DNA of 64,000 nt, from assembly GCF_009931435.1 (NCBI RefSeq), contig NZ_CP043414.1; one strand, given 5' to 3'. The notes beneath the pieces are model-generated. The model searched no databases, was not told the DNA's origin, and was given only the letters and a program-made list of their open reading frames with translations. This document shows positions 3,068 to 43,542 of the stretch, one piece after another. Each line of letters opens with the position of its first letter. The stretch's first letter is position 1. The translations under genes and the position numbers were made by a program. The stretch comes from Escherichia coli (lineage in GTDB: Bacteria; Pseudomonadota; Gammaproteobacteria; Enterobacterales; Enterobacteriaceae).

Positions 3068-3155
3068 GGTGAGGTGTCCGAGTGGCTGAAGGAGCACGCC
3101 TGGAAAGTGTGTATACGGCAACGTATCGGGGGTTCGAATCCCCCCCTCACCGCCA
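3068..3155 (+). tRNA. serW: tRNA-Ser (anticodon GGA), long variable arm
   Basis: 88-nt sequence GGTGAGGTGTCCGAGTGGCTGAAGGAGCACGCCTGGAAAGTG...GGTTCGAATCCCCCCCTCACCGCCA with anticodon loop CUGGAAA and class II extra arm; encoded CCA end. Confidence 0.92.
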
Positions 3156-3206: not shown

Positions 3207-3286
3207 CTGCCTGTACGGCAGTGAACGGTATAAAAATCGAGTTTTTCTTTCGGTTGGCTTTCTAAGCTGCCTGTACGGCAGTGAAC
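3207..3286. repeat. two copies of a 20-bp motif ctgcctgtacggcagtgaac (internal palindrome CTGCC-GTAC-GGCAG) spaced 60 bp
   Basis: exact direct repeat at 3207..3226 and 3267..3286, read directly from sequence. Confidence 0.7.
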
Positions 3287-36606: not shown

Positions 36607-37719
36607 TTATTTTCCGCTCTTCACTTTGGTCCACGCGCGGGTGCGCACACGGTCGATTTTCGGATCCTGCACTTTCAGAGTGAACAGCTTCGCACGGACA
36701 TCCGCAGGCGGGTAAATACCGGGGTTATCACGCACTTCCGCGCTTACCAGCGGCGTAGCTTCTTTGTTCGCGTTGGCATAGAACACATGGTCAGAGATAT
36801 GCGCTACGACATCCGGACGCAGCAGGTAATTCAGGAACTGATAAGCTTCGTCTTTATTTTTGGCATCCGCAGGCATGGCAAATACATCAAAGAATGCCAT
36901 CGCCCCTTCTTTCGGAATCGAGAACGAGACATTCACGCCATTCTTTGCTTCCTTCGCGCGGTTTGACGCCTGCCAGACATCGCCCGCCCAGCCGATAGCG
37001 ACGCAAATATCGCCGTTTGCCAGGTCGTTAATGTATTGAGATGAATGGAAATAACGAATGTTCGGGCGCAGCTTTAACAGCAGATCGGTTGCCGGTCCGG
37101 TGTAATCATCTGCTTTAGTGCTGTTGGGATCTTTACCGAGATAATTCAGCATGGTAGCAAACACTTCTTCCGGTGCATCAAGGAAAGAGACGCCGCAGCT
37201 TTTCAGTTTTTCCAGATTTTCAGGTTTGAGGATCAAGTCCCAGCTATCGACGGGCGCGTTTTCACCCAGTACCGCTTTGACTTTATCGACGTTATAGCCA
37301 ATCCCGGTCGTCGCCCACATATAGGGCATAGCAAATTTATTATCCGGGTCATGTTTAGCGACCAGCTTCAGCAGTTCCGGGTCGAGATTCTTCCACTCCG
37401 GCAATTTGTTTTTATCCAGTGGCTGGAAAACTCCCGCAGTCAACTGGCGCTCCAGAAAGCTGGCAGATGGAACCACCAGGTCAAAGCCGGTGCTCCCCGC
37501 CATTAATTTTCCTTCCAGTACTTCGTTGGAATCGAAAACATCGTAAACGACTTTAATACCGGTTTCTTTTTCAAAATTGGCCACCGTATCCGGGGCGATA
37601 TAATCAGACCAGTTATAAATGTGGAGTGTTTTTTGTTCAGCCGCGAGCGTGCCGACAGAGACGGCCATCAGAGCACCCGCAACCAGACCCGATAGCCATT
37701 TTTTATTTAAGGCGGTCAT
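36607..37719 (-). CDS. potF: putrescine-binding periplasmic protein PotF
   Basis: 370-aa product from ATG 37719 with signal peptide MTALNKKWLSGLVAGALMAVSVGTLA. Confidence 0.9.
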   Translation of the reverse strand: MTALNKKWLSGLVAGALMAVSVGTLAAEQKTLHIYNWSDYIAPDTVANFEKETGIKVVYDVFDSNEVLEGKLMAGSTGFDLVVPSASFLERQLTAGVFQPLDKNKLPEWKNLDPELLKLVAKHDPDNKFAMPYMWATTGIGYNVDKVKAVLGENAPVDSWDLILKPENLEKLKSCGVSFLDAPEEVFATMLNYLGKDPNSTKADDYTGPATDLLLKLRPNIRYFHSSQYINDLANGDICVAIGWAGDVWQASNRAKEAKNGVNVSFSIPKEGAMAFFDVFAMPADAKNKDEAYQFLNYLLRPDVVAHISDHVFYANANKEATPLVSAEVRDNPGIYPPADVRAKLFTLKVQDPKIDRVRTRAWTKVKSGK

Positions 37720-38068
37720 ATCTCTTTCCTTCTGAAAGTTCGTTAACAAACGAACAAAAGTTGTCACACTGAAAGATATGCAATATTCGTGCATATTTTT
37801 ATCGGCTCGGTGTAAGAAAAGAGAACTCTCTCCCGGCCAGCACTGCTCGCTATATAAAAGCATCGCAAGAATAACTTTAGCCAGGGTTTGAGACTATAGC
37901 TCGGATTAAAAAACGGTATTTAACAAATTTTTATGCGTATTTGCTCTATGTGATAAAGCCAAATCGGCACAAGAGAAGTGAAATAATCTTTAATAAAAGG
38001 TTAAAAACAGCAGATAATTTTGCAGCACGCAGTCACTGCGGCAGCGACTGCGTACTCGAAAGGAGTTA

Positions 38069-38545
38069 TCAGTGGAGGAAATAGTTTTCGGTAACGTTGT
38101 TTTGCCCTTCATCGTCAGTCGGTAACAGCAGTTGATGGGCATTAGCTTCAAGAATGACCATCGAAATCTGCTCTTCGCTCTGACGCACGAACCATGCAAA
38201 CTGCTCATAGGTTACGCCCTGCATAACGGATAAAGACTGGCAAACCACCAGCTTTGGCAGATTATCATCCTGCATATCAAGAAATGCTTTCACGGTCAGC
38301 GAACTGGCATTGATGGCGGATAAATCCGCCGCCAGCGGCAATACGGCTGAAGGTCGGACTTCCGCCATGGCAGAAAACAGGATCGTGTTATCGATCAGAT
38401 CGATTTTGGCATCAAAGACACCGTCGAAATTCTGCATATGGGGCAGATGCAGAGCCTGACAGTTATCACATTCAAAAAAACTCATCCCCAGGTCATCGAG
38501 CCATTGACGCAACGTATCCAGACCAGGAACGACCAGCGATGTCAT
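38069..38545 (-). CDS. ybjN: YbjN (putative sensory transduction regulator family)
   Basis: 158-aa product from ATG 38545 (MTSLVVPGLDTLRQW...). Confidence 0.85.
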   Translation of the reverse strand: MTSLVVPGLDTLRQWLDDLGMSFFECDNCQALHLPHMQNFDGVFDAKIDLIDNTILFSAMAEVRPSAVLPLAADLSAINASSLTVKAFLDMQDDNLPKLVVCQSLSVMQGVTYEQFAWFVRQSEEQISMVILEANAHQLLLPTDDEGQNNVTENYFLH

Positions 38546-38632
38546 AATTTTGTACAACCTCTTCCGATAAAAAGACCGGCACAGCTTACGCAAAAAGCGC
38601 AGGCAAAACCATGATCAGTAATGTGATTGCGA

Positions 38633-39535
38633 CTAACCACCCGTTTTCAGGCAATATTCTGTCGTGGCGTTGCGTTCGATCCAGCGGATCATTTTACTCG
38701 CGATGTCGATACCGGTGGTTTTTTCTATTCCTTCCAGCCCCGGCGACGCATTCACCTCCATCACCAATGGCCCGCGATTAGCACGCAGAATATCCACACC
38801 AGCAACGTCCAGCGCCATCGTTCGCGCGGCTTTTATCGCGATTTCACGCTCCTGTGGTGTGATACTGGCGACGCTTGCCGCGCCTCCACGATGCAAATTG
38901 GAACGAAAATCGCCCTCTTTCGCCCGCCGTTCAATCGCAGCGACCACTTCATCGCCAACAACCAGACAGCGGATATCGCACCCTTGCGCCTCTTTGATAT
39001 ATTCCTGCACCAAAATATGCGCGTTCAGACCGCGAAAGGCGTCAATCACGCTTTCCGCCGCCTGACGCGTCTCCGCCAGCACGACACCAATTCCCTGCGT
39101 ACCTTCAACCAGCTTAACCACCAGCGGCGCACCACCGACCATGTCGATTAAATCGCTGGTATCATCCGGCGAATGCGCAATGCCCGTGACAGGCAGGTCG
39201 ATGCCCTGACGCGCCAGCAGTTGCATGGAACGCAATTTGTCACGCGCCCGGGCAATGGCGACCGACTCATTGAGCGGATAGCTCCCCAGCATCTCGAACT
39301 GGCGCAGTGCCGCCGTCCCATAAAAGGTAATGGCGGTGCCAATACGCGGGATCACAGCGTCAAAATGGGGTAACTTGCGGCCTTTGTAGTGAATTGAAGA
39401 CGCCGCAGGATTTATGTTCATGTAGCAAGAAAGCGGATCAAGAATTTCAACCAGGTGACCACGCTGTATAGCGGCTTCACGCAGCCGCTTACACGAATAG
39501 AGCGTTCCATCCCGGGACAATATGGCAATTTTCAC
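38633..39535 (-). CDS. rimK: ribosomal protein S6 modification enzyme RimK (ATP-grasp)
   Basis: 300-aa ATP-grasp ligase sequence. Confidence 0.93.
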
Positions 39536-39595
39536 CCTGCACCTCTCTGTCAGACCTGGTCAAAAGCCCGCGTATCATACATCGGCGTGGCGATT

Positions 39596-40318
39596 TTAGC
39601 GCGTAGCCCAACCCTGTTTGTGCAAATAATCCAGTATAAATGGGCGGCTTTCTTTAATGATTGTTCGGCGGATATGATCGCTCCAGGTATCCCGGCGATT
39701 ATTGCTGCCACGGGTGAGGTAATATTCCGCCAGTTGTTCGTCATACTGCGCCAGTGCGTCTTTATCCAGCGGTTGATAGCTGTTTTCATGCACCAAAATG
39801 GAAGCCGGTAAACGCGGCTTAAGATCTGGATTATCCGCAGGCCAGCCAAGGCACAGCCCAAACAGCGGCAGAACATGCTGCGGTAATTTCAGCAGTTCCG
39901 TCACCGCTTCAATATTATTGCGCAGGCCGCCGATATATACCCCGCCCAATCCCAGCGATTCCGCTGCGGTTAACGCATTCTGCGCCATCATTGCCGTATC
40001 AACGACACCGAGCAACAGTTGTTCCGCCAGGCCAAGTTGTGCATCCGGACAGATCTGTAAATGGCGGTTAAAGTCGGCACAGAACACCCAAAACTCCGCC
40101 GCTTTCGCTACGTGTTTTTGCCCGCCGGTCAGCGTCACCAGTTCATCACGTAACGCTTTGTCGGTAATGCGAATAATGCTACTGCACTGCAAAAAACTGG
40201 AACTGGACGTCGCACGGGCGCTGTTAATAATCGCCTCACGCTGCGCTTCGGAAATGGGTTCATCAGTGAAATGGCGAATGGAGCGATGGCCACAAATAAG
40301 TTCAATGGTTGGCGTCAT
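39596..40318 (-). CDS. nfsA: oxygen-insensitive NADPH nitroreductase NfsA
   Basis: 240-aa nitroreductase-family ORF. Confidence 0.93.
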   Translation of the reverse strand: MTPTIELICGHRSIRHFTDEPISEAQREAIINSARATSSSSFLQCSSIIRITDKALRDELVTLTGGQKHVAKAAEFWVFCADFNRHLQICPDAQLGLAEQLLLGVVDTAMMAQNALTAAESLGLGGVYIGGLRNNIEAVTELLKLPQHVLPLFGLCLGWPADNPDLKPRLPASILVHENSYQPLDKDALAQYDEQLAEYYLTRGSNNRRDTWSDHIRRTIIKESRPFILDYLHKQGWATR

Positions 40319-40589
40319 TATCTTTTTCTCTTTCTGAACGTGAATATTGCGGTGGACGGTTCATCAGCTGTGGGGCAAGACGTTTTGCCACCTGAAGAAT
40401 AACCACCACCGCAGCGGGAAGCATGAGCAAAACACCGAGAAAAATCATCAGAATCTGCACTTCTGGCCGAGAAAATGGCTCAGGCAGCGACAGGGAGTCG
40501 CTTACCGACAGCAGCGCCACCGCCAGCAACATCATTCCGATAAATTCCAGTATCAACACGCTTTTAGGCAATTTACCGATCGCGCGCAT
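40302..40589 (-). CDS. ybjC: small membrane protein YbjC
   Basis: 95-aa hydrophobic ORF whose 3' end overlaps the nfsA start by 17 nt. Confidence 0.8.
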   Translation of the reverse strand: MRAIGKLPKSVLILEFIGMMLLAVALLSVSDSLSLPEPFSRPEVQILMIFLGVLLMLPAAVVVILQVAKRLAPQLMNRPPQYSRSEREKDNDANH

Positions 40590-40748
40590 ACGCTTCCCTC
40601 TGCAAAGTGAGCCTTCAGTCTAAAACTTTTCACTGTATTGTGTTTAACAGTTATAGCTTTTAGCAATTAATGCAACAGGTTAAACCTACTTTCAGCGAAT
40701 ACATTTTAGCGTGATCATTACAGGCATAAGTCTATGAGGGGAGAAATA

Positions 40749-41006
40749 ATGCAAACCGTTATTTTTGGTCGTCCGGGTTGCCCTTACTGTGTGCGTGCAA
40801 AAGATCTGGCTGAGAAGTTGAGCAATGAACGCGATGATTTTCAGTATCAGTATGTAGATATTCGTGCGGAAGGGATCACTAAAGAAGATCTACAACAAAA
40901 GGCAGGTAAACCCGTAGAAACCGTGCCGCAGATTTTTGTCGATCAGCAACATATCGGCGGCTATACCGATTTTGCTGCATGGGTGAAAGAGAATCTGGAC
41001 GCCTGA
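40749..41006 (+). CDS. grxA: glutaredoxin 1
   Basis: 85-aa product from ATG 40749; active site CPYC (GRPGCPYCVRA). Confidence 0.93.
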   Translation: MQTVIFGRPGCPYCVRAKDLAEKLSNERDDFQYQYVDIRAEGITKEDLQQKAGKPVETVPQIFVDQQHIGGYTDFAAWVKENLDA

Positions 41007-41016
41007 GCGTCTGACA

Positions 41017-41046
41017 AGCCCTCGTGTTGAGGGCTTAATTAATTTT
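41017..41046. terminator. hairpin terminator between convergent grxA and ybjM
   Basis: agccctc-gtgtt-gagggct stem with flanking T-rich run. Confidence 0.55.
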
Positions 41047-41413
41047 TTCTGTGCTGTGATTTAAACAAACTGCTGATAAATAAGAAACACAATGCCCCCA
41101 ACGCACACCAGAACACCGCACTTAATAACCATGCCAGCTCTTGCCAGAATGAGCGCGTTGGTGAAAAAAACAGCCGCATTATGAGCATCGAACAGGGTGC
41201 CGCCAGCATTGCGCCAAACAGAGGTTTCAGGACTTCTCTACGCTGTGAAAAGAAGCTGGCAACCGCTCCAGGAAGAATGAAAAACAGCAAACCAATTTCA
41301 GGATGCCCGGCAGCCCGAAAAGCGCCTTTCATGTGCGTCGCCAGAAAAAGGCACACCACAATGAAGAGGACAAAACAGCAGATTGCCCCCGCCCAACGTT
41401 GTTTATGTTTCAC
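41039..41413 (-). CDS. ybjM: inner membrane protein YbjM
   Basis: 124-aa hydrophobic ORF; synteny. Confidence 0.8.
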   Translation of the reverse strand: MKHKQRWAGAICCFVLFIVVCLFLATHMKGAFRAAGHPEIGLLFFILPGAVASFFSQRREVLKPLFGAMLAAPCSMLIMRLFFSPTRSFWQELAWLLSAVFWCALGALCFLFISSLFKSQHRKN

Positions 41414-43444: not shown

Positions 43445-43523
43445 GCCACTGCTTTTCTTTGATGTCCCCATTTTGTGGAGCCCATCAACCCCGCCATTTT
43501 GGTTCAAGGTTGGTGGGTTTTTT
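43445..43523 (+). ncRNA. rybB: RybB small RNA (sigma-E-dependent, Hfq-binding)
   Basis: GCCACTGCTTTTCTTTGATGTCCCCATTTTGTGGAGCCCATCAACCCCGCCATTTTGGTTCAAGGTTGGTGGGTTTTTT matches recalled RybB including the terminator hairpin and U-tail; lies between ybjL and rcdA as expected. Confidence 0.88.
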
Positions 43524-43542
43524 GTTATCTAAAATTTATCTA

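Follow-up and report, generated by a model that had tools for sequence, protein, structure and literature searches.

The 17-nt overlap between ybjC and nfsA in Escherichia coli: anatomy, distribution and possible translational coupling

Background

[quoted passage not shown] According to a 2025 review, the efficiency of coupling is best at spacings of -4 to +3 nt and falls progressively as the overlap is lengthened from -4 to -25, where none is left. Spacings of -8 to +6 have been used as the window indicative of reinitiation by Huber et al. 2023 (PMC10666635), who also described a series of long co-directional "phase 1" overlaps (-8, -11, -14) that are about four-fold rarer than the short ones (-4, -1, -8) and several-fold commoner than those in the other phase. 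The overlap of ybjC and nfsA in Escherichia coli has a spacing of -17; it belongs to this long series and falls outside the reinitiation window. As in the classical coupled pairs, the two genes are co-directional, lie in one operon and have a Shine-Dalgarno-like motif within the upstream gene. Unlike in those pairs, the ybjC stop codon does not abut the nfsA start but lies 14 nt beyond it, and coupling is putative. Whereas Huber et al. treat long overlaps statistically, the ybjC/nfsA overlap is traced here to particular codons conserved in nfsA.

Much of this locus has been described before. Coordinate control of ybjC and nfsA by SoxS, acting on a class I ybjC-nfsA promoter, was found by Paterson et al. 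2002 (as summarised in PMC11936445), nfsA shares an operon with ybjC and is driven by the ybjC promoter (PMC6375286), and the four-gene operon ybjC-nfsA-rimK-ybjN is listed in several studies (PMC2648988, PMC3948049, PMC4421995). Both nfsA and ybjC are repressed in stationary phase by the small RNA SdsN (PMC10953011). Annotation and earlier papers already cover both the overlap and the operon, and the junction is the ordinary E. coli arrangement. What is added here is the age of the overlap across genera, the out-of-frame origin of the YbjC tail and the open nfsA start with its own Shine-Dalgarno-like motif, which together amount to a small evolutionary footnote. Nitrofuran antibiotics are activated mainly by NfsA, and loss of nfsA is the first step to nitrofurantoin resistance; because of this role, the way in which nfsA expression is wired to ybjC is of some practical interest.

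The two genes and their junction

The window analysed is a 64,000-nt stretch of E. coli DNA, in which both genes lie on the minus strand. The upstream gene, ybjC (40302..40589, from the ATG at 40589 to a TGA), encodes a 95-aa protein of the DUF1418 family. Residues 1-92 of the 95 match the Pfam profile PF07214 (E 1e-42; 144 bits against a gathering cut-off of 22), the hydrophobic segments of the protein fit its annotation as an inner-membrane protein, and E15, G18 and P58 are invariant in alignments of its homologues. Its start codon is preceded by a good Shine-Dalgarno sequence, AGAGGG, with a 6-nt spacer. The downstream gene, nfsA (39596..40318, minus strand, from the ATG at 40318 to its stop), encodes a 240-aa oxygen-insensitive NADPH nitroreductase (Pfam Nitroreductase). 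The protein aligns over residues 1-240 with the E. coli NfsA structure 1F5V (E 2e-159), from which it differs at five residues, and with the Vibrio Frp structure 1BKJ (E 8e-77), residue 1 to residue 1; by similarity, it is a full-length NfsA/Frp-type oxygen-insensitive nitroreductase. The ATG at 40318 is the earliest start codon following an in-frame stop. Given this, the DUF1418 match and the alignments from residue 1 with 1F5V and 1BKJ, both boundaries of the overlap, that is, the end of ybjC and the start of nfsA, are secure as judged by sequence comparison.

The sequence, the open reading frames and the RefSeq annotation agree that the 3' end of ybjC and the 5' end of nfsA share 17 nt, ATGACGCCAACCATTGA, at 40302-40318 on the minus strand. 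The initial annotation had placed this same-strand overlap exactly, and its gene names also proved right. The minus strand reads GAT A/ATG ACG CCA ACC ATT GA/A across the junction, where the slashes mark the limits of the overlap. In the ybjC frame this is GAT AAT GAC GCC AAC CAT TGA, corresponding to D N D A N H and the stop, and in the nfsA frame it is ATG ACG CCA ACC ATT GAA, corresponding to M T P T I E. On the ybjC side, the overlap contains the final five sense codons and the TGA; on the nfsA side, it covers the first five codons, start codon included, plus two bases of codon 6. The TGA of ybjC (40304-40302) straddles two nfsA codons: its T is the third base of codon 5 (ATT, Ile), and its GA opens codon 6 (Glu or Asp). 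Since the ybjC frame overruns the nfsA start before reaching this TGA, the whole ribosome-binding region of nfsA, from an AGAGA/GGAG-type motif and an A-rich spacer to the ATG and the first codons, is encoded within the C-terminal codons of ybjC. In the window, the putative initiation signals (40319..40331, minus strand) comprise a Shine-Dalgarno-like AGAGA at 40331-40327 and an A-rich 8-nt spacer at 40326-40319. A reading frame that runs past the start of its neighbor will on average stay open for about 21 codons, so an overlap of 17 nt is not improbable by chance.

The same overlap is annotated by RefSeq in a strain that is 99.4% identical, as well as in K-12 MG1655 (ybjC b0850, 890913-891200; nfsA b0851, 891184-891906), which resembles the window in its genes, their order, their strand relation and the 17-nt overlap. 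The differences between the window and other E. coli are strain-level substitutions only. A 179-aa open reading frame on the opposite strand (39798-40337, plus) spans nfsA and the overlap; nothing supports it and it is most likely a chance open frame.

The lengths of both proteins vary in the databases. In E. coli, YbjC is also found with 89 aa (720 contigs), 92, 91 and 86 aa, and the shorter variants have lost residues in frame from the loop around LSVSDS (40480-40515, minus strand). The ybjC gene of the window contains two copies of CTGTCG placed 18 nt apart (40511-40506 and 40493-40488); read from the window sequence alone, slippage between these copies would explain the 6-aa deletion. As for nfsA, the protein is shortened from 240 to 221 aa in E. 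albertii NBRC 107761 and to 197 aa in a contig of Erwinia amylovora. These short records, in which the overlap with ybjC is retained, suggest premature stops and possible natural losses of the nitroreductase.

Distribution of the overlap and origin of the YbjC tail

Of 5386 E. coli records, 4976 share an identical 71-nt stretch across the junction. The larger ybjC-nfsA region (1.26 kb, 39500-40760) finds a match of 99% identity or more in only 16 E. coli records, and 5405 fall at 95-99%, which indicates that the window comes from a less commonly sequenced E. coli lineage. Among the matches to this region, seven places are on records labelled as plasmids.

Other genera were reached by protein searches combined with look-ups of contigs carrying the exact proteins; with one YbjC protein as the query against species-representative genomes, Escherichia alone had come up. 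The sequence ATGACNCCNACCATTGA and the 17-nt overlap are found in five Escherichia (E. albertii, E. whittamii and three other lineages), in Salmonella, Citrobacter amalonaticus, C. braakii, Mangrovibacter and Erwinia amylovora, and in three metagenomic lineages. In the more distant lineages that keep the overlap, YbjC identity goes down to 30-49%. The identity of the junction within E. coli and its recurrence in distant genera indicate that the overlap is not an accident peculiar to this strain, and this distribution places its origin before the split of Enterobacteriaceae and Erwiniaceae.

Three lineages depart from this arrangement. Pantoea is the only exception that bears nfsA: its ybjC ends at TAATG, with a 1-nt overlap, and since its nfsA Ile5 codon is ATC there is no ybjC TGA at nfsA codons 5/6. 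In the other two, nfsA is missing: ybjC is directly followed by rimK, 47 nt away, in GCA_000307305.1 and by ybjN in Yersinia aldovae. In GCA_000307305.1 (2268-2320), the bases right after the ybjC stop are TGAtaATGACGagtaag, which look like what remains of the nfsA start ATGACG, and the deletion of nfsA in this lineage may have been almost exact.

The N-terminus of NfsA, MTPTIE, is conserved in orthologues from 11 enterobacterial lineages, and the conserved C-terminal motif of YbjC, D-x-[N/D]-H, is this MTPTIE read one frame off. The motif is absent in both lineages devoid of nfsA. Since the tail is missing where nfsA is missing, it is best seen as a shadow of nfsA: the conserved C-terminus of YbjC is, to judge from this comparison, an out-of-frame reading of the NfsA MTPTIE and of the ribosome-binding region, and is not needed by YbjC itself. 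Users of the DUF1418 profile should be cautious with its final residues, which reflect the neighboring gene and not the function of YbjC.

Operon context and transcription

The genes ybjC, nfsA, rimK and ybjN follow each other on one strand, divergent from grxA, according to the open reading frames, Pfam and the RefSeq annotation. The third gene, rimK (38633..39535, minus strand; Pfam RimK and Rimk_N; RefSeq), starts 60 nt downstream of nfsA, and the fourth is ybjN (38069..38545, minus strand; Pfam YbjN; RefSeq). The ybjC-nfsA-rimK-ybjN unit proposed in the initial annotation is borne out by this arrangement. The same annotation had deduced co-transcription from the overlap. Co-transcription itself stands, as it is supported by published experiments known through secondary citations (PMC11936445, PMC6375286, PMC2648988, PMC3948049, PMC4421995) and not by the present computation; gene overlap by itself implies co-transcription only weakly.

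As the genes overlap, there is no space for a terminator between ybjC and nfsA. A terminator scan of 37500-41100 gave hits on that strand which all lie within coding sequence and are not more numerous than in shuffled sequences. The SoxS/MarA/Rob-responsive ybjC promoter is placed by the literature only in the divergent grxA-ybjC intergenic region (40590..40748, minus strand). In a sigma-70 promoter scan of 37500-41100, sites were not more numerous than in shuffles and nothing exceeded chance in that region. A promoter-like match at 40344-40317 was rejected as an nfsA promoter, as its -10 element covers the nfsA ATG and it would produce no mRNA with a leader. The marbox consensus AYNGCACNNWNNRYYAAAY with at most 2 mismatches gave 14 matches where 17 are expected, none of them in the ybjC promoter region; a candidate found by eye has 3 mismatches, and no position is claimed for the SoxS site.

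For SdsN137 (K-12 1996921-1997057), the best predicted pairing of the 5' region falls at the ybjC start (40566-40593, minus strand) and not at the nfsA start. A crude duplex calculation over 1038 tiles, which takes the 5' part of the sRNA only, ignores intramolecular structure and provides a lead only, gives this site -23.4 kcal/mol; the tiles average -11.7 (sd 3.8), so that the site lies about 3 sd lower. The prediction with the whole SdsN137 was discarded as meaningless because it produced long artificial duplexes involving the terminator hairpin.

Initiation of nfsA translation

A Shine-Dalgarno-like motif precedes the nfsA start in all 11 lineages compared. Its predicted duplex with the anti-Shine-Dalgarno sequence is weak in the window (-2.9 kcal/mol) and likewise in Escherichia, Salmonella and Citrobacter; in six other lineages it ranges from -4.3 to -7.4 kcal/mol, and the spacing is always 5-8 nt. 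The start region is predicted to be among the most open stretches of the mRNA in all 11 lineages. In the window, a 111-nt fragment spanning the junction folds at -12.5 kcal/mol against -16.0 for its shuffles (z = +1.19), that is, it is less structured than the shuffles, and 4.3 kcal/mol is enough to open the region from -18 to +12 around the nfsA ATG, where the background averages 13.6. Across the 11 lineages, opening this region takes 4.3-8.6 kcal/mol and the background means are 12-16; every lineage is at or below the 14th percentile.

The spacing of -17, the Shine-Dalgarno-like motif of its own and the open start site suggest that nfsA is initiated mostly independently, with coupling that is weak at most; the possible translational coupling put forward in the initial annotation would thus be reduced to a minor role. 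Nevertheless, with a Shine-Dalgarno match as weak as that of Escherichia, Salmonella and Citrobacter, coupling could still make a real contribution. Taken together, the junction is probably best explained as the normal one of the E. coli ybjC-nfsA-rimK-ybjN oxidative-stress operon, in which nfsA would be mainly self-initiated and the overlap built from constrained nfsA codons. According to the literature, both genes are transcribed from the ybjC promoter under SoxS/MarA/Rob control. Most NfsA would be made by ribosomes that bind the open nfsA start site directly, and those that finish ybjC 14 nt downstream and re-initiate at nfsA would make at most a small contribution. The overlap would persist mostly because of the constraint on the nfsA codons that form it, and some extra selection may hold the ybjC stop codon in place.

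Selection on the ybjC stop and alternative explanations

The strongest competitor of this explanation, a serious possibility that we rate somewhat below even chances, is that the overlap is a frozen accident in which the TGA persists only through the conservation of NfsA Ile5 and Glu/Asp6 and the fact that ATT is a common Ile codon. The stop is indeed made wholly of conserved nfsA residues, lineages without nfsA do without the YbjC tail, and the spacings -8, -11, -14 and -17 form the commoner class of long overlaps, a predominance that Huber et al. (PMC10666635) attribute to the difficulty of shortening them by point mutation. Synonymous sites offer some evidence against a purely passive persistence. 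They were compared over nfsA codons 1-155 in the 11 lineages, at the 89 columns where the amino acid is invariant and its codon degenerate. Thr4 ACC is the sole column of the 89 that is identical in 11/11 lineages, and Ile5 ATT is one of six that are identical in 10/11, which puts it among the top 7; the neighboring codons, those of Thr2 and Pro3, show free variation. In ybjC, the third base of the Thr4 codon serves as the first base of the last sense codon, and that of the Ile5 codon as the T of the TGA. By comparison with the 10/11 of Ile5, the three other invariant Ile codons of nfsA are identical in 6-8 of 11 lineages, and the only lineage with ATC at Ile5 is Pantoea, in which ybjC stops elsewhere. 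A query carrying the ATT>ATC change showed that at most 2 of 5372 E. coli records at 99% identity or more could contain it, and these two, neither of which is among the full-length top matches, are probably partial alignments. The extended ybjC frame that this change would create, with 12 codons added in E. coli by the loss of the stop, was seen in none of the lineages compared.

These observations hint at an extra selection keeping the ybjC stop in its position. The synonymous-site signal is modest, and Thr4 was noticed after the fact. Moreover, Thr4 ACC is also kept in Pantoea, which lacks the 17-nt overlap; the signal may therefore reflect selection on the initiation of nfsA rather than on ybjC.

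It is less likely, and on the whole doubtful, that the genes are tightly coupled by termination and reinitiation, so that most NfsA would come from ribosomes that finish YbjC and slide back about 14 nt, the overlap tying both outputs together. Such coupling would fit a co-directional overlapping pair with a Shine-Dalgarno-like motif, an arrangement shared by many coupled pairs, and it could account for the maintenance of the overlap across genera, for the weak Shine-Dalgarno match in E. coli and for the conserved synonymous sites under the last codon and stop of ybjC. Yet -17 is outside the -8 to +6 window of Huber et al. (PMC10666635), and in systematic constructs coupling is progressively lost between -4 and -25. 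The open start region of nfsA can also recruit ribosomes directly, and the shift to -1 in Pantoea and the loss of nfsA in other lineages imply that the -17 spacing is not obligatory. Finally, no reason is known why YbjC, a small membrane protein, and NfsA, a soluble flavoenzyme, should be made in a fixed ratio; to our knowledge, they are not subunits of one complex.

A related and still less probable possibility is that the -17 overlap is a selected regulatory device, in which ribosomes that finish ybjC would run across the nfsA start, occupy it transiently and so make the output of NfsA depend on the translation of YbjC. If that were true, YbjC translation would act on NfsA either positively, by re-initiation, or negatively, by occlusion, and anything that blocks ybjC translation would also set the level of NfsA; the stationary-phase sRNA SdsN137 would be a candidate for such an effect.

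A very improbable mechanism is coupling by RNA unfolding, in which the nfsA start would be locked in a structure opened only by the ribosomes that translate ybjC. Although coupling of this kind is known in general from other operons, the start region of nfsA is open in the 11 lineages and the junction folds worse than its shuffles; both the fold z-score and the opening energy contradict the sequestered start that this mechanism requires, and coupling by the unfolding of an inhibitory structure is therefore unsupported.

An annotation artefact, with ybjC ending earlier or nfsA starting later and no true overlap, is scarcely credible: mis-called starts sometimes produce long overlaps (a general caveat; PMC10666635), but the frame determines where a gene stops, and that of ybjC is set by the DUF1418 match and the homologues, which also disposes of the shorter ybjC frame that the initial annotation had considered, while MTPTIE is conserved in the 11 lineages, NfsA aligns with Vibrio Frp from its first residue and the first 60 nfsA codons, as displayed, contain no second ATG.

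Other features of the window

A single match to the Rfam CRISPR-DR4 repeat (3259-3286, minus strand; 50 bits against a gathering score of 35) adjoins a tRNA-Ser(GGA) at 3068-3155 on the plus strand. An orphan repeat persists between clpA and infA in E. coli strains that lack a type I-F system, and the match may be this remnant. Three small RNAs were also matched by Rfam above their gathering scores: RybB (43448-43526, plus strand; 105 bits), naRNA4/CssrE (30694-30774, minus strand; 76 bits) and ES036/CssrF (31731-31773, minus strand), the last one at 38.8 bits, just over its cut-off of 37.6.
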